A stretch of 64,000 bases of DNA from a virus (IMGVR_UViG_3300020123_000589:87360-151359), one strand, 5' to 3'; counted from the stretch's first letter, positions 5,825 to 42,147 are shown. Numbers and translations are program-made. The notes: a model not told the origin generated them from the letters alone.

Positions 5825-6355
5825 ATGGCAGAGCTTGGCAATACAAATGCGCGACTTAGTACTTCAGTATCACTTTTTCTATTACCACAGAGTCTAAATG
5901 CAACGACTTTGAATAATCCAGCTGCTCTTCTTTCTTTAGCGCAACAGTCTACGAAGATCGGAGCAGTTCAATCTTTTACACAAACTCAAAGACGAGATAC
6001 AGATTTTCGATTTGAGTTGGATTCTGATCAGCAAGGCAAGCCAGTTGAAAGATTGCCCCGCACAGTGAGTGAATACAGCCTTCGTGCTGACCGAGTTATG
6101 TTGTATCTATCAGATGCTCTTGAAGTGTTGGGTATTTCTGGTGATGACATTGTGAATAACAATGCTCCAATTGGTATTTTGAAACAGGAAATCGCACCTG
6201 CCGGATCTTCAGCTCCCACAAAGTCCACGATTTTTACGGGAGTGTGGATTCATTCAGTTTCTGCCACATACAATATCGCTGGTGGAGATTTAAGAATTTT
6301 GGAAGGTGTGGATTTTGGATATACATCGTCTACAGTGGTCGGAGAGCCAGTATAA
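5825..6355 (+). CDS. Tail tube protein
   Basis: Directly after the sheath, 176 aa, 'IGAVQSF' and 'FTGVWI.S.S..Y' pattern. Confidence 0.7.
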   Translation: MAELGNTNARLSTSVSLFLLPQSLNATTLNNPAALLSLAQQSTKIGAVQSFTQTQRRDTDFRFELDSDQQGKPVERLPRTVSEYSLRADRVMLYLSDALEVLGISGDDIVNNNAPIGILKQEIAPAGSSAPTKSTIFTGVWIHSVSATYNIAGGDLRILEGVDFGYTSSTVVGEPV

Positions 6356-6402
6356 GATTAGTTCCTAGAATAGTAAAAAGATAAGAGAGTAAAGGAGTTA
6401 CA

Positions 6403-6750
6403 ATGGACTTGAAAAGCTTCGCAGCATTAGGGCTTGTTTCTAAGGAATTCGAGATTGTAAAAGATTTAAAAGTATCAATGCACACGCTTTCTGTTTTGCA
6501 GCAACAGCAAGCATTGTCTGAATTGATTGTTTCTCCCGCAGGACAAGATCCAGCCCTTCGCACTGTGGTTTTGCAGCAAGCCTTGTTGGTTTATGCTTTG
6601 GATACAATCAACGGTGCAAAAGTTACATTGCAAGAAGCAAAAGATTTCATTCAAAATTTACAAGCTCCAATCTTTAATGAAATTTACAATTGTTATGATT
6701 TGATGGCTCAAGAACAGGATAATACCCTTACTGAATTAAAAAAAAAATAG
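6403..6750 (+). CDS. Tail assembly chaperone (lambda G-like)
   Basis: Lies between tube and tape measure; ends TTA AAA AAA AAA TAG. Confidence 0.75.
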   Translation: MDLKSFAALGLVSKEFEIVKDLKVSMHTLSVLQQQQALSELIVSPAGQDPALRTVVLQQALLVYALDTINGAKVTLQEAKDFIQNLQAPIFNEIYNCYDLMAQEQDNTLTELKKK

Positions 6751-7115
6751 AAAATCCCTCTGATATACTTCCCTTCCGCGATCTCTGGATCGTAGCTAAA
6801 GCTCTCCGTGTTTCTCCCTTTTCTGAAACCATTTCTTCTCTTTCTCCAGCCGAATTTACATGGGTTTTAATGAATCATTCTAAAGATGAAGAAGAAGAAT
6901 GGAAAAAATTTGAATACCTTTGTCGATTTATAAATCCTCAAGCTGCTACCGAAGTATTTGATCAAAAAGTTATTGAAAAGACCGTTAGCACAGAAGATGT
7001 ACTCTTCGAGCAAATGAGCAAAGACCTTAAGGGTAAATACAGCCCTAAAGAATTGAAAGCAATAATGGAAGACCCAAAACATCATAGCGAATTGGATAGG
7101 ATTGAACGAGTTTAA
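6403..7115 (+). CDS. Tail assembly chaperone, -1 frameshift product (GT-like)
   Basis: A10 run at 6738-6747. The -1 frame is open from there (KIENPSDILPFRDLW...) into ORF 6870..7115. Confidence 0.75.
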
Positions 7116-7140
7116 CTTTTCTTTACATAAAATAAACCCC

Positions 7141-7169
7141 TTGACAAGTTCTCCTTTTTCTGCTAGACT
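7141..7169 (+). promoter_or_regulatory. Sigma70-type promoter
   Basis: TTGACA-17-(TGc)TAGACT. Confidence 0.7.
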
Positions 7170-7193
7170 CATAGTAGAGAGGAGATAATTAAA

Positions 7194-7367
7194 ATGATTA
7201 TTGTAGGTATTATTTTTGTTCTATGTGTTTACATTGTTGCTCTTATTGGTAAGATATTTAATTTACGTGATGGAACTATGGCTGGTTTATGTATGTGGGT
7301 TTTTTTAGTAGTTTTAGGTTCAATATTTTATTTGCTATCTTCTGTACCTGTAGAAACATTTCGCTAA
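7194..7367 (+). CDS. Small two-TM membrane protein (57 aa; moron-like)
   Basis: GAGGAG SD; MIIVGIIFVLCVYIVALIGKIFNLRDGTMAGLCMWVFLVVLGSIFYLLSSVPVETFR; below the ORF-track cutoff. Confidence 0.65.
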   Translation: MIIVGIIFVLCVYIVALIGKIFNLRDGTMAGLCMWVFLVVLGSIFYLLSSVPVETFR

Positions 7368-31625: not shown

Positions 31626-32635
31626 ATAAAATCGTGGAAATAAAATTTGGAAGTCATTTATATGGGTGTGCTACACAATCTAGTGATTCCGACTTTAAGG
31701 GTATTTATTTACCAACGTCCAGGCAGATCGTTCTTGGGCAGGGAAAGCATAACGTCAGTACATCACGTCCGAAGAAAGAATTTGAGAAGAATAGTAAAGA
31801 TGATGTGGATTCCGAAACCTTCAGTCTCAAAGAATATTTAAAGCTGCTTTGTGAAGGACAGACGGTTGCGTTGGACATGCTTTTTAGTCCCGCCTCTTTT
31901 CATGTGTTCAAAGGGGAGCGGTATGATTTATTTCAGAACATTTATGAGAATAAAGATAAGTTGCTTTCTAAGGGGATTTTAAGTTTCATTGGATACGCCA
32001 GAAAGCAGAGCGCGAAATACGGGATCAAAGGATCTCGCGTTCGAGCAGTAAAGGATACACTTGAATTTTTGAATACAGCTGTTTCTAATGGTGTTAACAA
32101 CCAATTACTTTTAAAAGATACTAATGTAAAAAGTGGATTAGATAATTTTATTACATCGGTTAATTCAGAATTCATTAAATATGTAGAATTGCCAGATCCT
32201 AACGGAATAATAGTACCTTATTTTGAGGTGTGCAACCGAAAGTTTCAAATGACAAATTCTATCAAATATACGTTAGCGGTTTTAAATAAAATTTACGATG
32301 AATATGGGCAACGGGCTAAGTTGGCTGAGGTTAACGATGGAATAGATTGGAAAGCATTGAGCCATGCTGTGCGTGTCAACTTTGAAGGACAGGAACTATT
32401 GAAGACAGGATTTATTACATTTCCCTGTCCAGAAAGGAAGCTTCTTTTGGATATTAAGACAGGTAAACTTCCCTATAAAGAGGTTGAAATCCTAATTGAG
32501 AATGGATTAAAGGATTTAGAGAATGCCCAAAAAACCTCTAAATTACCACAAAAACCCGATCTCAAATGGGCTGAGGATTTTGTGTACGACGTTTATTCTG
32601 AGATTGTCAAAAATAAACCCTTGACAATTTTATAA
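31622..32635 (+). CDS. Nucleotidyltransferase (Pol-beta superfamily, RlaP/T4 NrdC.11-like)
   Basis: FGSHLYG..T..SD.D.KGIY.P; 'DWKALSHAVR', 'LL.IK.G'. Confidence 0.8.
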   Translation: MNKIVEIKFGSHLYGCATQSSDSDFKGIYLPTSRQIVLGQGKHNVSTSRPKKEFEKNSKDDVDSETFSLKEYLKLLCEGQTVALDMLFSPASFHVFKGERYDLFQNIYENKDKLLSKGILSFIGYARKQSAKYGIKGSRVRAVKDTLEFLNTAVSNGVNNQLLLKDTNVKSGLDNFITSVNSEFIKYVELPDPNGIIVPYFEVCNRKFQMTNSIKYTLAVLNKIYDEYGQRAKLAEVNDGIDWKALSHAVRVNFEGQELLKTGFITFPCPERKLLLDIKTGKLPYKEVEILIENGLKDLENAQKTSKLPQKPDLKWAEDFVYDVYSEIVKNKPLTIL

Positions 32636-32649
32636 AATTCTGCTATACT
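32621..32649 (+). promoter_or_regulatory. Sigma70-type promoter, leaderless to ATG 32655
   Basis: TTGACA-17-(TGc)TATACT. Drives two small single-TM ORFs (ATG 32655 and 32788). Confidence 0.8.
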
Positions 32650-33105
32650 AAATTATGAAGACAAAACAAATGAAAGCTTTTATAAAAAATTACTGGATAG
32701 CACTTCTTGGAAGCGTTGTTATTATTGGAATGTTAATTGTTGATGGCTGGATGGTTTTCAGCCAATGTTCTCTTTGGTAAAATAAAATGGATAATGGAAA
32801 TTTAAAACTTTTAATTTTGGGTATGTTGCTTGGGGCGATACTCTTGGCGAGTGGAATGGTTTTTAATTCCCTCTCAAATGTTCTTCATAACATTCAAGTG
32901 AAATCTACAAATGAAGGAGTGCTCCTTAAACTTTAATGAATATTGAGTTTACTGATTATTTTGAAGATGCTGTATCTTGTTGGGAACTGTCTAACAAGAC
33001 GAACATTTCAAATTTAATAAAACGTTGCCTGTTTAAAAAAATTATAAAGAAGGAAGCTTTTGAATTACTGATGGTTGAAGTAGACAATTGGAATGGGAGA
33101 AAATT

Positions 33106-33354
33106 ATGAAGTTGGTAAAATGTTTGCATTGCAAAGTGTTCCTAATCCACAATAAAGAAGAGTATAAACGGCATGAAACGAAGCACCATGCTTATCATGC
33201 TTCTAAATATGAACCACATCATCATCGCCCTTTGAGCAATGAAGAATTTAATAGCATAGTGGCAAAAGGTGAAGAGCGGTTTAAACAGGCCCTTTTTGTA
33301 CCAGATAATCCAATTAATTTACGCAGCAGAAGTACTGGCTACGGCCAGCAATAA
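33106..33354 (+). CDS. Hypothetical C2H2-like His-rich protein
   Basis: CLHC...H...HH; ATGA overlap. Confidence 0.45.
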   Translation: MKLVKCLHCKVFLIHNKEEYKRHETKHHAYHASKYEPHHHRPLSNEEFNSIVAKGEERFKQALFVPDNPINLRSRSTGYGQQ

Positions 33355-33380: not shown

Positions 33381-34811
33381 ATGAAAAAGCTAATTGTTGT
33401 ACTCGCTCTTGTCATGAGTGTTGCTACTCTGGCCAAAGCGTCAAACGTAACGGATACGGGACCAGGAAGTGCAGGAGATGTTCTTTATTTCACAGGTCAA
33501 GCAGGAAATGATCAAGGGACTTGGAGCAATTTGCCAAGTCTGGTACAGACGATTGTAAATAATAACATCACAGTTCCAGCGACTGTTGGTTCTGGAGTTA
33601 ACGGAGCTACCCCAGATACGGTTGGTAATTTGAATTTTGTCGGTACAGGATTGACATCCTCTGTATCAGGTTCAGGTTCTACAGCCACATCTAACATTGA
33701 CTTCAGTAATTTGTCAACCGTTGAGGGTCAGACGAATGCAACAAACATTACAAACGTAAGCAACTCACTAGATACAACGAACAGCAATGTTACGAACTTA
33801 ACAAATACGGTTAACAGCAATTCTACGGATATTAGTGGATTGCAAACGACTGTCAATCAACACACAACGCAAATCAATCAGAATACCTCTGATATCAGCA
33901 CCTTGAATAGTGGATTGAACACGACTAATACGAACGTGACCAATCTATCCAACAAGGAAGCCGGAGATGTTGCTTCTATTAATAACATGTCTGATCCAAG
34001 CACTATCTTGAATCAAACTGTTAATGCCAATACACAAAACATTGCCGCTGAAACTATTCGTGCAACAGGTGCAGAAAGCGTCCTCCAAAGCAACATTAAT
34101 GGGGAAACAGCTCGTGCTACTGGTGTTGAAAGTGGAATTCAGAACATGACGGATGGTAGTTTGTTGAGCAATACCGTTAATACCCATACTCAACAAATTA
34201 GTGCGTTGAATACGGGATTGACAAATGAAACAAATCGCGCAGAAGGTGCTGAAGGAGTTTTGCAGAACAACATTAACAACGAAGCTTCTACACGCGCTTC
34301 GGCTGACCAAGCGTTGCAGAATCAGATTAACAATGTGAATGCTCAAGCACAAGACAATACCAATCGCATTGATCGTTTGGAACAGACTAAGTATTTGTTG
34401 GAGCCTACCGTTCGAATCTATGATGGTAAGCTTTTTCAAGTGCAAGCGTTTGATTCTTATGATGTTCGACACGGTACTAACTTTGCTTTGGGTGCTCGTG
34501 TAATGTTGAAACTTGGAAAGTCTTATGAAGAGAAGCTTCTTGCTAAGACGAACCCTGAGATTGCTCGTCTTCTTTCAGCTAATGTATCCCATGACATTGC
34601 AGAACGGGATGCTATTCGTCAGCAGCTTGCTGAAGACCGCGCTCTTATTCAAAAGCAAAGTGAGCTTCTTGCTAAGTTGACTACGCCACAAGCCACTGTT
34701 CTTAGTGTTCCAGTTGTATCTTCAGATCATGTCTTTGGAACTCCTTCTAAGGCTGATGAAGATCTTCTTCAAGCCTTGGATGCAAAGAATGAGGCGTTCG
34801 CAGCCAAGTAA
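33381..34811 (+). CDS. Secreted fibre/adhesin-like protein: signal peptide, coiled-coil stalk, short beta-strand anchor
   Basis: MKKLIVVLALVMSVATLAKA signal; N/T-rich heptads and ETxRAxxAExxLQ repeats; C-terminal amphipathic strands + KLGKSYEEKLL. Confidence 0.7.
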   Translation: MKKLIVVLALVMSVATLAKASNVTDTGPGSAGDVLYFTGQAGNDQGTWSNLPSLVQTIVNNNITVPATVGSGVNGATPDTVGNLNFVGTGLTSSVSGSGSTATSNIDFSNLSTVEGQTNATNITNVSNSLDTTNSNVTNLTNTVNSNSTDISGLQTTVNQHTTQINQNTSDISTLNSGLNTTNTNVTNLSNKEAGDVASINNMSDPSTILNQTVNANTQNIAAETIRATGAESVLQSNINGETARATGVESGIQNMTDGSLLSNTVNTHTQQISALNTGLTNETNRAEGAEGVLQNNINNEASTRASADQALQNQINNVNAQAQDNTNRIDRLEQTKYLLEPTVRIYDGKLFQVQAFDSYDVRHGTNFALGARVMLKLGKSYEEKLLAKTNPEIARLLSANVSHDIAERDAIRQQLAEDRALIQKQSELLAKLTTPQATVLSVPVVSSDHVFGTPSKADEDLLQALDAKNEAFAAK

Positions 34812-34817
34812 CGAATC

Positions 34818-34854
34818 TACACTGCAAGGGCATCGAAAGGTGCCCTTCAGCGTA
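34818..34854 (+). other. Intergenic stem-loop with GAAA tetraloop (no U-tract)
   Basis: AAGGGCATC-GAAA-GGTGCCCTT, extendable by TACACTG/CAGCGTA. Confidence 0.6.
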
Positions 34855-34884
34855 TATTCAAACTAAAAAAGAGAGGGAAACGAA

Positions 34885-35400
34885 ATGAACAAGAAAACAG
34901 TAATGGCCATTCTGTTAGCTAGTTTGTTTATTGCCCCGTTGGTATCAGCCAACTGCGGTAATGGCAACGACAATGGAAATGGTTGTAGTGGTGGCAACAC
35001 AGGATCACAGGGACCACAAGGGCCACAGGGAAATCCTGGACTAAATGGTTCTAACGGCGCAAATGGAACCAATGGTTCTAATGGAACAAATGGAGCTGCC
35101 GGATTAAATGGAACAAATGGGGCCAATGGACTTAATGGCGTAGACGCAGTAAATCAGTCTCGTCTTTTAGGGGAATTGGATCTTCGCGTTTGGGATACAA
35201 AGCGCACGTCTTTTTATGCCTTTGATTCCTATGGATTCAATGATGCTCCAGGAAATGATGTTGTTATGGATGGCCGCAATGCATTCTATGGATTCAAGTT
35301 TGTTGTTAAGCTTGGCTCCTCCTATGAAGAACGATTGTTGGATAAACAAGCAGGACAGATCAAAGCATTAGAAGCAGCATTAGCAAAGTTGTCTAAGTAG
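34885..35400 (+). CDS. Secreted collagen-like protein with the same beta-strand anchor
   Basis: Signal peptide ending VSA; 17 Gly-X-Y triplets; ...LRVWD...AFDSY...KLGSSYEERLL. Confidence 0.75.
   Translation: MNKKTVMAILLASLFIAPLVSANCGNGNDNGNGCSGGNTGSQGPQGPQGNPGLNGSNGANGTNGSNGTNGAAGLNGTNGANGLNGVDAVNQSRLLGELDLRVWDTKRTSFYAFDSYGFNDAPGNDVVMDGRNAFYGFKFVVKLGSSYEERLLDKQAGQIKALEAALAKLSK
34993..35145 (+). repeat. Collagen Gly-X-Y repeat (17 triplets)
   Basis: GNT GSQ GPQ GPQ GNP GLN GSN ... GVD. Confidence 0.85.
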
Positions 35401-35406
35401 TCTTTA

Positions 35407-35459
35407 GCTTGTTCCTGGGGTGTTTTGACCTTTAGGCATTACATCGAGCGGGAACAAGC
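35407..35459 (+). other. Intergenic long imperfect stem-loop
   Basis: GCTTGTTCCT ... GGGAACAAGC. Confidence 0.5.
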
Positions 35460-35471
35460 ATAAGGATTAAA

Positions 35472-35717
35472 ATGCCAATACTAGCTCTTCTTTTAGCAGT
35501 AGCCAGTCCTAAAGTGCAAGATCCAGAAACGATTGTGCATAAATATGATAATTTTGATTTTGGAAAAATCAATCTTTCTATTAAAGGATTGAATACTGTG
35601 GAATTGAATAAAGATATTTATAGTGGCAAACATCTTCAAATTGAAAGTGACGGATCTTGGAATGTTTCCACCCGTCAGCAGGAAGCTACATTGCAAGTGG
35701 CTTGGAAATTTAAATAA
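35472..35717 (+). CDS. Small secreted beta-strand protein, stalk-less paralogue of the anchor domain
   Basis: Short hydrophobic N-terminus; IYSGKHLQI matches IYDGKLFQV; ends LQVAWKFK. Confidence 0.55.
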   Translation: MPILALLLAVASPKVQDPETIVHKYDNFDFGKINLSIKGLNTVELNKDIYSGKHLQIESDGSWNVSTRQQEATLQVAWKFK

Positions 35718-35877
35718 TGTCCAATTTTGAAGTAACACCTCCGCAGGTAGTGAATTTAATTTGTCCTCGGTGTAAACTTACGTGGATGAATAAAAATGGA
35801 AATGAAAACTTCTATTTTTGCTATGCTTGCAGTTTTATACTCTTTGATAGACAGGTAGAAGAGTTTAAAAAGGGATC

Positions 35878-35906
35878 TTGACAAAGTATTAATTTGGTGG
35901 TATAAT
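35878..35906 (+). promoter_or_regulatory. Sigma70-type promoter (perfect consensus), near-leaderless to ATG 35914
   Basis: TTGACA-17-(TGg)TATAAT. Confidence 0.85.
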
Positions 35907-38343: not shown

Positions 38344-39510
38344 ATGAATTCACTTTATCTTTTAGCCATTCTTATTTTCTTTAATCAGGGTATTGGCGGA
38401 TTAGCTGCACAACCACTGTATTACTTTTTGCGTGAAACTTTGGGCATGGGTGTTCCAGCGATTATGGTCCTTGGAGCCCTTGCGAACCTTCCATGGTTGA
38501 TTAAGCCTGTCTGGGGATTTCTTAGTGATTCAATAAGTATCTTTGGGTACCGTAGAAAAAGTTATATTGTTTTATTTGCGCTTTTAGGCACCATAGCTTT
38601 TCTCGCTATCGGCTTGTCACCATTTATTTCTCTGTCTATTCTTATCGGCTTGATGATTGTTGGGTCCATTGGGGAAGCTGGTGGAAATGTAGCTGTAAAT
38701 GGCATGGGGATAGAAGAGGGTAATAAGGATGGAACTACAGGACGTTTTCAATCCATAACCTGGGCGGCTTTAGGTGTTGGTTCTGTCCTTACAGGCGTTT
38801 CTGGTGGTTATATTGCTGAAAAGGCTTCCTATCATCTCGCTTACGTAATTCTCGCTATTTTCCCTATCCTAATCGCTATAATGGCCCTCAGACATCCAGA
38901 AGAAAGGGCAGAAGGTTCTAAAAAGAACGTGGGGCCAATAATTAAGGATTTCCTATTAAAATTAAAAAATAAACAGATCCTTTTGTGTAGCCTTTTTGTA
39001 TTTTTCCTTTGGTTCAGTCCTTCTTTTGGAACTCCACTTTTGGACAGAATGCGAACGGTTTTACATATGTCCAAAGTGTGGATTGGATGGCTAGATACAA
39101 TTGGATCAGCTTGTGGAATTATCGGAGCTATGGTATACTTTAAAGTGAGCAAGAACATCAATATGAAGCGTTGGTTGTATTACGGAACCATCTTAAGTGC
39201 TTTGGCAACATTTGCTTATTTGTACCTAACGCCGACTACTTTGCTTTGGTATACGATTGTATTTGGAGTGGCAACACAGTTCATTCATTTGCTGATGCTT
39301 AACTTGATGGCGATGACTTGTCCAGAAGGAACTGAGGCAACTACGTATGCTTTGTTGTGTTCGTTGGTGAATTGTGCATCTTTCTTTTCGAATATCGTTG
39401 GAGCTAAGTGTTTCGCTTTGTTTGGATATAATGGGCTGATTATTATTTCAGGCGTTACTACCTTTATGTGTTTGGGATTTATTCCGTATCTTGAGGTAAA
39501 GAATGTTTGA
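38344..39510 (+). CDS. MFS transporter, folate-biopterin (BT1/FBT) family
   Basis: About 12 TM segments; 'LPW.IKP.WG.LSD...IFGYRRKSY' and 'CP.G.EAT.YALL.S..N' signatures. Confidence 0.85.
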   Translation: MNSLYLLAILIFFNQGIGGLAAQPLYYFLRETLGMGVPAIMVLGALANLPWLIKPVWGFLSDSISIFGYRRKSYIVLFALLGTIAFLAIGLSPFISLSILIGLMIVGSIGEAGGNVAVNGMGIEEGNKDGTTGRFQSITWAALGVGSVLTGVSGGYIAEKASYHLAYVILAIFPILIAIMALRHPEERAEGSKKNVGPIIKDFLLKLKNKQILLCSLFVFFLWFSPSFGTPLLDRMRTVLHMSKVWIGWLDTIGSACGIIGAMVYFKVSKNINMKRWLYYGTILSALATFAYLYLTPTTLLWYTIVFGVATQFIHLLMLNLMAMTCPEGTEATTYALLCSLVNCASFFSNIVGAKCFALFGYNGLIIISGVTTFMCLGFIPYLEVKNV

Positions 39511-41171: not shown

Positions 41172-41344
41172 AGGTGTACATAGATCAGTGTTGTTTCAAT
41201 TGTAAACATGAGGCAGGATGGCACCGAGATTGTGGTCGTAAGAACGGGCATTGTTTTAAATGTGCAGATTGTCAAGAATTTGTTCCTTCGGACAATCTGG
41301 ATTATATTGAAAAAAAAAAAAAAAAGAGAGGATTAGTAAAATGA
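41168..41344 (+). CDS. Zn-finger + DNL-tail family member 5 (poly-A within the tail)
   Basis: CFNCKHEAGWH...CFKC..C.EFVPSDNLDYIEKKKKKRGLVK; GTGA overlap with dnaB. Confidence 0.7.
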   Translation: MKVYIDQCCFNCKHEAGWHRDCGRKNGHCFKCADCQEFVPSDNLDYIEKKKKKRGLVK

Positions 41345-42147
41345 GCGTAAAACACCGTTATTCATGGCTCCCAGATTTACCTGATTTTAGAGATTTTAAG
41401 TATGCCTTTCACAGTCTAAAATTTTCTCCAAATATGGGATTGAATTTAAATTTGCCAACACAAGTTGATTTACGTCCCTTTTGTTCTCCTGTATTTGATC
41501 AGGGACAGTATGGTAGTTGTACCTCACAATCTCTTGCAGGGCATTTAGAATTTTTGGAGCTTAAAGAAATCCGAGAAAAAACTACTGCCCCAGAAGAGTT
41601 TGATCCTAATACTTTTGTACCATTCTCCCGCCTTTTCATTTATTGGAATGAACGCGATCTGGAAGGTACTACGAGTCAGGATAGTGGAGCACAGATTCGT
41701 GATGGTATTAAATCCTTGGCTCAATACGGAGATTGTAAAGAGGGGAATTGGAGCTACCTACCACAGAATGTATTTACCAAACCATCTGATGTAGCATTCC
41801 AAGAAGCTGCAAGTCATAAAATTTCTACTTATATGCGCTTGGATAGTCTTTACGACGTAAAGCACTGTCTATCAAGCGGCTACCCAGTTTCATTTGGTTT
41901 TACTGTATTCGAATCTTTTGAATCTCCTGAAGTGGCCAATACTGGGATTGTTCCAGTTCCACAATCTAATGAAGAATGTGAAGGCGGTCATGCCGTCTTA
42001 GCTGTTGGATATGACGATGCAAAGCAATGTTTGATCGTTAGGAATAGTTGGGGTCCGACTTGGGGCGATAAAGGATATTTCTACCTTCCCTATGAATTTG
42101 TCACCAATCAGGATCTCAGCGACGATTACTGGTCAATTCGTAAATGA
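41341..42147 (+). CDS. Papain-like cysteine peptidase (C1A)
   Basis: LP..VDLR, DQG..GSC, SRLFIY.N.R, GGHAV..VGY, RNSWG..WG..GY. Confidence 0.9.
   Translation: MSVKHRYSWLPDLPDFRDFKYAFHSLKFSPNMGLNLNLPTQVDLRPFCSPVFDQGQYGSCTSQSLAGHLEFLELKEIREKTTAPEEFDPNTFVPFSRLFIYWNERDLEGTTSQDSGAQIRDGIKSLAQYGDCKEGNWSYLPQNVFTKPSDVAFQEAASHKISTYMRLDSLYDVKHCLSSGYPVSFGFTVFESFESPEVANTGIVPVPQSNEECEGGHAVLAVGYDDAKQCLIVRNSWGPTWGDKGYFYLPYEFVTNQDLSDDYWSIRK

Follow-up and report, generated by a model that had tools for sequence, protein, structure and literature searches.

Why should a phage genome carry, away from the genes of its own particle, exported proteins built like surface fibres, and what is the role of the module that these proteins have in common? 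The question is raised by three consecutive open reading frames (ORF1 to ORF3) in the 64,000-nucleotide virus stretch IMGVR_UViG_3300020123_000589:87360-151359, here called the window, which forms the final 64 kb of a 151-kb IMG/VR virus record. An earlier note on this DNA had read them as three secreted paralogues with trimer-type stalks on a shared beta-strand anchor, and all three ORFs do lie where it had placed them (Table 1). Our results indicate that ORF1 and ORF2 belong to a real and hitherto undescribed family, found mostly on contigs of uncultured phages, where it keeps company with early or auxiliary genes, and on a few chromosomes of Synergistota. As for the module, the account that we favour, and hold tentatively, is that of envelope fibres resembling trimeric autotransporter adhesins (TAAs), seated on a reduced, three-strand outer-membrane anchor.

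ORF1 and ORF2 both start with a basic N-region and a hydrophobic core followed by A-K-A and V-S-A respectively, i.e. a classic Sec leader. Such N-termini had been proposed for all three proteins; these two stand, while that of ORF3 is weak, being devoid of a basic N-region and having a hydrophobic core of 9 residues. In ORF2, the leader is followed by a cap with two Cys (N-C-G-N-G-N...G-C) and by 16 uninterrupted G-X-Y triplets (aa 40-87), one fewer than previously counted, and the collagen repeat itself is well recognized, scoring 33.8 bits against Pfam Collagen (PF01391) for a cut-off of 27.2. ORF1 and ORF3 contain no such triplets. NCBIfam models of the collagen-like adhesins Lcl (NF046116, 24.6 of 500 bits) and Scl (NF038329 and NF038330, 26.8 of 325 and 25.0 of 400) align with the collagen part of ORF2 only and stay below their cut-offs; its PHROG matches, all to tail-fibre families, also run through that part. 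The ORF1 stalk is an N/T-rich coiled coil, as first described, with 19% Asn, 16% Thr, a 3.5-residue periodicity and four E-x-x-R-A-x-x-A-E motifs. Its length exceeds 35 nm, for about 14 nm in ORF2. No other anchoring device, LPXTG motif or C-terminal membrane helix, was seen in either protein. These features support export of ORF1 and ORF2 and stalks of trimer type, collagen in one and heptad coiled coil in the other, the proteins being presumably trimeric.

On the C-terminal side of these different stalks, the two proteins share 30 of 82 residues (37%, BLASTP E 3e-12), and the family hidden Markov model (HMM) recovers both (E 3e-29 for ORF1, 8e-27 for ORF2). In ORF1 the three strands read L-L-E-P-T-V-R-I-Y-D, F-Q-V-Q-A-F-D-S-Y-D and N-F-A-L-G-A-R-V-M-L-K-L-G, and are followed by S-Y-E-E and a helix. 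The module matched no entry of Pfam, PHROG or NCBIfam. Against PDB sequences, profiles made from 2 and from 32 sequences gave nothing meaningful, the latter having no match at E<=10.

A search of 1.84 billion proteins with a two-sequence profile of the shared region (E<=1e-3) returned a family of 206 cluster representatives, annotated as hypothetical in all sources. Members are recognized by the motif series R-x-Y-D-x-K ... F-x-x-Y-D ... G-x-R-x-x-x-K-L-G-K-S-Y-E-E, found in ORF1 and ORF2, and nearly all follow the same plan of a signal-like N-terminus, a collagen or coiled-coil stalk and the module. Among 150 representatives, at least 114 carry the signal-like N-terminal segment, 76 match Pfam Collagen and 2 display a lipobox-like motif. 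In many members, the leader is directly followed by a conserved head motif, N-V-T-D-T...G-x-V-L-Y...G...G-x-W, which in ORF1 reads N-V-T-D-T...G-D-V-L-Y...G-T-W and occupies aa 21-60 (33441-33560); collagen-type members open instead with N-C-G-N-G-N-G-N-G-C, a likely disulfide cap. Databases contained no match for this head motif or for the Cys cap.

After the module, four types of tail can be told apart by eye: that of ORF2, a short helix; that of ORF1, with about 100 helical residues up to D-E-D-L-L-Q-A-L-D; a helix with a small beta unit and a final Phe; and a His-rich type. A cruder count over the 150 members gives 87 short tails, 33 long ones with an aromatic end and 30 other long ones. 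Tails of the ORF1 type recur in P0001-P0006 and in L020 (4329-5684), a related 142-kb phage contig, with a conserved acidic end helix of D-x-L-x-x-L-[DE] spacing. The His-rich type (P0062, P0063, P0072, P0088, P0107 and others) has a conserved A-H-[RK]-P-G-x-H-Q, possibly a metal- or partner-binding peptide. At the other end of the protein, the collagen stalk and module of P0083, P0101 and P0120 are preceded by a response-regulator receiver domain (best Pfam E 2.8e-15) and by a hydrophobic segment that has an A-x-A site. These fusions are odd, as they join a cytoplasmic signalling domain to an exported fibre.

The exact sequence K-L-G-K-S-Y-E-E occurs at 15 confirmed IMG/VR loci and, among 185,579 prokaryote species represented by one genome each, in only 2, both metagenome-assembled genomes (MAGs) of Thermovirgaceae. 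With the profile, 4 of 268 Synergistota genomes gave strong matches, and the two examples examined sit among ordinary chromosomal genes. One Thermovirgaceae MAG carries on a short contig two tandem family genes with near-identical leaders (L003:5433-5966 and 6163-6597), beside AAA-ATPase-like genes, which may be a mobile element. At 10 viral loci, with a G+C content of 26-53%, the gene is surrounded by replication (helicase), ligase-like, transporter and small zinc-finger genes and is never part of a structural module. The modules of ORF1, P0147 and P0035 had no tblastn match in 50,697 phage records, and the family was not found in any cultured phage with known host. The nearest Protein Atlas clusters, unnamed and mostly viral, score below 0.9 and serve as a lead only.

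The structure predicted for the module is simple. The AlphaFold2 (AF2) model of ORF2 (m5d78314f3205; 150 homologues) has exactly three 10-residue strands and a 24-residue helix, in agreement with the strands and helix proposed at first, with a mean predicted local distance difference test score of 79 that rises above 90 in strands and helix. P0147, a member with an unrelated stalk and a tail ending in Phe, is modelled with the same three strands and helix, and with a second three-strand meander after the helix; both models are monomer predictions. Residue covariation is in accordance with them: mean-field direct-coupling analysis of 222 sequences (effective number 166) recovered the antiparallel ladders b1-b2 and b2-b3. 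The only strong coupling between sheet and helix is that of R22 with E69/E70 at their junction; because such couplings are few, the helix probably projects from the sheet as a coiled coil with hydrophobic a/d positions.

The two faces of the sheet differ markedly. One is hydrophobic and variable; it consists of four rows (positions 17-23, 29-33, 56-64), has aromatic residues at either end, and tolerates Gly, Ala or Thr in place of Leu, Val or Phe. The other is polar and near-invariant, with R22 (146/150), G57 (150/150), R/K59, K63 (149/150) and F34. Of the 11 strongest couplings between strands, ten join residues on the polar face and none joins a hydrophobic-face pair. The ends of the sheet are also unequal: a tight turn (D-T-K-R) lies on the helix side and a variable loop, with a 9-aa indel, on the stalk side, and the basic residues K27, R28, K63 and K66 gather on the helix side. 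In outer-membrane proteins, a tight turn on one side and a variable loop on the other are the usual pattern, which here would fit a stalk-outside orientation. When both models were compared with the PDB (Foldseek, VIA), and that of P0147 also with BFVD, no match reached E<=1e-3; the best (Z 4.2) and the others were generic three-strand sheets of Nudix, hot-dog and TFIIA folds. These searches listed no TAA anchor, which is not evidence that the folds differ.

By their general plan, ORF1 and ORF2 would work most like TAAs of the Terrabacteria type, yet they are not recognized as members of that family. TAAs in which a periplasmic coiled coil follows the barrel are described, for example those of VtaA type in Veillonella (Béchon et al. 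2020, PMC7549365), and a 2026 preprint reports a periplasmic coiled-coil or SLH/OmpA domain after the barrel in 99.8% of TAAs from Negativicutes, 96% of those from Synergistia, 92.5% from Synechococcus and 62% from Fusobacteriia (bioRxiv 10.64898/2026.01.22.700529). The helix after the strands is indeed present, as the earlier note had seen, but it is not the departure from canon that was then supposed. Veillonella TAAs have been shown to be degraded once their C-terminal helix is deleted. As in these TAAs, a signal peptide, a fibrous passenger, a short amphipathic beta module and a C-terminal coiled coil succeed one another, the signal peptide and passenger being documented by the A-x-A leaders, the collagen match and the heptad periodicity, and the passenger being probably trimeric. 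In Proteobacteria, the last strand of a TAA closes the protein with an aromatic residue, whereas in Terrabacteria a periplasmic domain comes after it. ORF1 and ORF2 end in helices and have no terminal aromatic residue; in 72 of 150 members, F or Y occupies the column that matches this residue, and K-L-G-K and the heptad helix come next, which parallels the Terrabacteria form. Both kinds of protein have a last strand ending in aromatic-[K/S]-hydrophobic-G-K, and both occur in Synergistota. There, the YadA_anchor model PF03895 finds 20 of 151 genomes, and 12 genuine anchors taken from this phylum all show the last strand (…G-R-A-G-I-S-F-S-[LV]-G-K), then a linker and a coiled coil of 40-100 residues. 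In hhalign, our family aligned with these 12 only through its last strand, in the same register, with K-L-G-K on [LV]-G-K (P 0.0024, probability 12%, 22 columns), a result that is suggestive, not significant.

The differences are as clear. PF03895 matched neither ORF1 nor ORF2 (E<=1), nor any of the six frames of the whole phage record (E<=10), nor any of the 150 members (E<=0.1), and there was no match in the PDB; judged on these profiles, the module is not a YadA anchor, in line with the non-canonical character proposed in the earlier note. Where a TAA subunit has four strands, the module has three, according to AF2 in two members and to the covariation ladders. It also lacks the Ala/Gly-rich pore helix (G-A-H-A-A-A-L-S type) that precedes the strands in Synergistota TAAs, and its helix follows immediately (S-Y-E-E), whereas that of Terrabacteria TAAs comes after a Lys-rich linker. 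Moreover, the passengers are collagen or N/T-rich coiled coils and not YadA head or stalk repeats, and the family is mostly found on phage contigs.

We suppose that ORF1 and ORF2 are exported by Sec, with leaders cut by signal peptidase I, and would assemble as homotrimers into fibres that belong to the envelope of the infected cell and not to the virion. The shared module would gather three chains: the three-strand meanders may close round a three-fold axis and the helices behind them pair up as a coiled coil, which would set the register of the collagen or heptad stalk and let it zip up toward the N-terminus. The resulting nine strands would make a small outer-membrane barrel, with the variable hydrophobic face turned to the lipid and the conserved polar face to the lumen, the stalk outside and the coiled coil in the periplasm. 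A Terrabacteria-type TAA deprived of its pore helix and first strand would have exactly this topology of an external stalk, three crossings and a periplasmic coiled coil. Trimer formation, membrane insertion, orientation and role (adhesion, receptor masking or superinfection exclusion) are the conjectural parts of this scheme.

We lean to an outer-membrane anchor because the strands of about 10 residues have a dyad pattern, with a conserved polar face opposed to a tolerant hydrophobic one; because the loop asymmetry gives, independently, the same orientation as the TAA analogy; and because the last strand has its motif, no other anchor was seen and members occur in Synergistota. The chemistry of the strands, their unequal loops and the weak last-strand match to TAAs are compatible with such an anchor. 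Several observations nevertheless weigh against it. We know of no bacterial outer-membrane protein with a nine-stranded barrel and three parallel seams, in which b3 would stand beside b1 of the next chain. Searches in Pfam and PDB, and by Foldseek and VIA, gave no profile or fold match to a TAA anchor or other outer-membrane protein, and the hhalign probability to TAA anchors is the low one given above. Neither a YadA head or stalk nor a peptidoglycan-binding domain was found in the longer relatives and in 10 long members, no family member carries such a head, stalk or tail, and most members end in a helix, not in an aromatic strand. The three receiver-domain clusters fit surface display only if the hydrophobic segment is cut at its A-x-A site. 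That the host has an outer membrane is an assumption. The strong version of the proposal, that of a new kind of outer-membrane anchor, i.e. a trimeric nine-stranded barrel with odd crossings, without pore helix and with a polar-packed lumen, derived from a Terrabacteria TAA anchor that lost its pore helix and first strand, and spread by large uncultured phages with swappable collagen or coiled-coil stalks to decorate the surface of infected cells, is in our opinion less likely than not.

It is also a real possibility that the module is soluble, a trimerisation and registration domain in which nine strands make a prism or barrel around a hydrophobic core, held by a coiled-coil clamp, and which would nucleate exported fibres, periplasmic or released, acting via their heads or tails. 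The foldon of T4 fibritin and the non-collagenous NC domains of collagens nucleate trimers in a similar way, and meander or prism connectors with a hydrophobic core are common in soluble trimeric fibres. Its location, with a trimer-type stalk directly on one side and a heptad helix directly on the other, agrees with this, collagen stalks being known to require a trimerisation domain, and an odd number of strands is natural in a soluble connector and awkward in a membrane barrel. The 33 long aromatic-ended tails, one of which is modelled as a second three-strand meander after the helix, recall a modular soluble fibre, and this second meander and the receiver fusions fit such a fibre at least as well. 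Neither sequence nor fold led to an outer-membrane protein or TAA, and the closest functional analogues in NCBIfam are Lcl and Scl, through the collagen part. The chemistry of the sheet is less easily accommodated: a near-invariant polar face and a tolerant hydrophobic one are the reverse of a packed soluble core, and the top couplings lie on the polar face, although exposed ion pairs could do likewise. Aromatic rows at both ends of the belt, and the asymmetry of turn and loop, have no obvious reason in a prism, and a soluble fibre would be left with no visible anchor or secretion signal beyond Sec.

In another scheme, the device would be reversed and span the envelope, with a periplasmic stalk, the N-terminus at or near the inner membrane, and a module that contacts or crosses the outer membrane and exposes the tails, as in OmpM/SlpA tethers, inverse autotransporters or spanins. 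The receiver domain and hydrophobic segment fused to the stalk N-terminus of P0083, P0101 and P0120 would make sense there, as would tails that are the most varied part of the protein and the cluster of K27, R28, K63 and K66 on the helix side of the sheet. We find it improbable, given that stalks ranging from ORF2 to ORF1 length are poorly suited to a fixed periplasmic span, that a tight turn outside with a long variable loop inside is contrary to the usual outer-membrane-protein pattern, and that all three receiver fusions keep A-x-A after the hydrophobic segment and may simply be cleaved. No lipoprotein or membrane partner is conserved beside the family gene, and no lysis genes lie nearby. 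The candidate spanin-like pair of this genome (a 72-aa membrane protein and an 84-aa lipoprotein) is located elsewhere, among nucleotide-metabolism genes, and was discarded as lysis-cassette evidence for a diderm host.

That ORF1 and ORF2 are virion fibres, of the tail or as head decoration, with N-terminal hydrophobic segments that are not export signals, is very improbable. Collagen repeats and repeats of the E-x-x-R-A-x-x-A-E type are common in phage tail fibres, and the PHROG matches of ORF2 are all of this kind, through its collagen part. Collagen-like tail fibre proteins of prophages are known, the collagen-like proteins of E. coli O157 prophages (EPclA-type) being described as such (PMC3368898). 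Against this, canonical A-x-A Sec leaders are present in at least 114 of the 150 representatives, bacterial members lie among ordinary chromosomal genes, and the present cluster comes 9 kb past the last tail gene, after tRNA and replication genes. We consider that the proteins are not part of the virion because their gene is outside the structural modules at the 10 viral loci and, here, in a unit bracketed by two sigma-70-like sites.

Other known fibres help to place the family. Lcl of Legionella, Scl1/2 of Streptococcus and BclA of Bacillus are, like ORF2, exported proteins in which a collagen triple-helix region is joined to a non-collagenous trimerising domain. Unlike them, ORF2 has an unrelated non-collagen domain (no PDB match at E<=10) and no LPXTG, and its gene is borne by a phage. 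The foldon of T4 fibritin, a 27-residue hairpin in a cytoplasmic virion protein without leader, and the FGG and DALL connectors of SadA-type TAA stalks, which are meander or prism connectors of trimeric fibres, resemble the module as small beta structures within or C-terminal to a trimeric coiled coil that set trimer and register; no fold match to them was found, the best Z being the 4.2 given above. Eib proteins are TAAs borne by prophages, so that phages can carry surface-anchored TAAs. Both EPcl and Eib are, as here, phage-carried fibrous trimeric proteins. EPcl proteins differ in being linked to tail fibres and devoid of a signal peptide, and Eib proteins in having canonical YadA anchors; no sequence relation of ORF1 or ORF2 to either was found.

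ORF3 is a different case. It is a real gene, conserved in synteny, with syntenic homologues in two relatives. The three genes recur in this order in the contig L020, where one module is 89% identical to that of ORF2 and the third gene, 33% identical to ORF3, encodes a protein with a good leader. The claim that ORF3 is a third paralogue with the same C-terminal domain did not hold as the one for ORF1 and ORF2 did: it has no BLASTP match to either, and the family HMM does not match it at E<=0.01 (all ORFs of the window) or at E<=10 (non-overlapping ORFs of the genome). When its three-member family was aligned with the domain family by hhalign, a probability of 9% was obtained (P 0.0035, 36 columns), in the register that had been drawn by eye. 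It lacks the invariant Gly of the module and the helix. Nor does it have the aromatic, outer-membrane-protein-like end attributed to it, since its last residues are W-K-F-K, although the L020 homologue does end in F-K-F-K-W. Only 3 proteins of this type were found among about 5.8 billion non-redundant sequences, the closest ending in S-W-R-F-K, and no relative was detected among the small exported ORFs that lie downstream at other loci or, by word search, in viral contigs. Kinship with the shared module is possible, and ORF3 may be a helix-less relic of it.

The idea of a hetero-oligomeric barrel made by the three proteins is likewise not sustained. Four relatives were searched over their full length, and a single family gene is present in each of the two nearly complete phages, against two in L020 (74% complete); at the other loci examined, no second copy lies within the 16 kb read. 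No neighbour or partner gene is conserved across loci, and ORF3 brings no support. Two candidates for a dedicated helper gene were also rejected: in the present phage, the homologue of the 106-111-aa exported protein encoded downstream in L007, L008 and L010 lies 110 kb away, and there is none of the 120-aa membrane protein whose gene is downstream in L005 and L016.

Almost all genes of the window are on the + strand, with a G+C content of about 38%. As the earlier note had it, the cluster is outside the virion module, from which it is separated by helicase, nucleotidyltransferase and two tRNA genes; ClpP, a BT1 transporter, a DnaB-like helicase and a C1 peptidase are encoded downstream. The host-type promoter that had been located ahead of the cluster is indeed sigma-70-like, and a second such site opens the next unit and so bounds the cluster; both are consensus matches only, and the regional number of such sites is not above shuffled expectation. 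Conversely, the common leader GG(A)AACGAAA(A)TG proposed for the first two genes turned out to be an ordinary Shine-Dalgarno sequence and spacer, its 12-mer (<=2 mismatches) occurring 8 times in the window for 8.6 expected. In L020, the alignment of upstream regions, by eye, places an apparent G+C-rich hairpin-like stretch in the same spot as the hairpin listed in Table 1. No GenBank phage matches at DNA level the 30-40 kb part of the window. Neither a tyrosine integrase nor an SLH domain was detected in this phage or in three relatives, and the 'provirus' label is unsupported because no integrase is present.

Table 1. Features of the three-ORF locus and its surroundings (nucleotide positions counted from the first letter of the window, aa positions from the start of each protein)
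Feature	Position	Strand	Remarks
ORF1, 476 aa	33381..34811	+	Sec leader, head, stalk, shared module, tail
ORF1 Sec leader	aa 1-20		cut after A-K-A; read from sequence
ORF1 N/T-rich heptad stalk	aa ~101-335
Shared module in ORF1	34386..34580 (aa 336-400)	+	aligned to ORF2; strand positions transferred from the ORF2 AF2 model
ORF1 helical tail, ~76 aa	final helix at 34746-34808 (aa 456-476)		end D-E-D-L-L-Q-A-L-D
ORF2, 171 aa	34885..35400	+	leader, two-Cys cap, collagen stalk, shared module
ORF2 Sec leader	aa 1-22		cut after V-S-A; read from sequence
Shared module in ORF2	35158..35397 (aa 92-171)	+	strands aa 95-104, 108-117, 132-141; heptad helix aa 147-170
ORF3, 81 aa	35472..35717	+	small beta-rich protein, weak leader
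Intergenic hairpin AAGGGCA-(8 nt)-TGCCCTT	34826..34847	+	between ORF1 and ORF2, without T-run; read from sequence
Sigma-70-like promoter site TTGACA-17-TATACT, TG extension	32621..32649	+	consensus scan, 11/12; heads the unit of the cluster
Sigma-70-like promoter site, TG extension	35878..35906	+	consensus scan, perfect 12/12; opens the next unit, so bounds the cluster
Baseplate and tail-fibre (virion) genes	14-23 kb of the window

Some neighbours of the cluster deserve mention. Upstream of ORF1, the same promoter-bounded unit contains two tiny single-pass membrane ORFs of 41 and 49 aa (32655-32780 and 32787-32936) and an 88-aa Cys/His-rich ORF (33088-33354), the order of the 49-aa and 88-aa ORFs being kept in L020 (3958-4113 and 4110-4325). 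A 54-aa zinc-ribbon ORF (35717-35881) starts in overlap with the stop codon of ORF3 (TAATG); in L020 the corresponding region is a single 115-aa ORF (6960-7307) that continues into a membrane segment. The BT1 gene (38344-39510) encodes a full-length folate/biopterin-type transporter (Pfam E 7e-40), uncommon as a phage auxiliary gene and also present near the family gene in related phage contigs (L007:10268-11437, L010:4957-6129). A 268-aa protein with a papain-family C1 peptidase domain (41341-42147; Pfam E 2.5e-14) is encoded in the replication region of the phage.

If embedded in the membrane, the module would be the smallest autotransporter-type anchor known and the first bacterial barrel with an odd number of strands per chain, which would bear on how BAM assembles multi-chain barrels and on passenger exit. 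Whether it is an outer-membrane anchor or a soluble domain, ORF1 and ORF2 reveal an undescribed family of about 200 sequence clusters and phages whose early or auxiliary genes encode Sec-exported fibres, collagen-like or coiled-coil. For collagen design, the module might prove useful as a compact trimerisation tag. Exported fibres borne by phages point to a remodelling of the host envelope or surface during infection, which may act, for instance, in adhesion, aggregation, receptor masking or phage exclusion.

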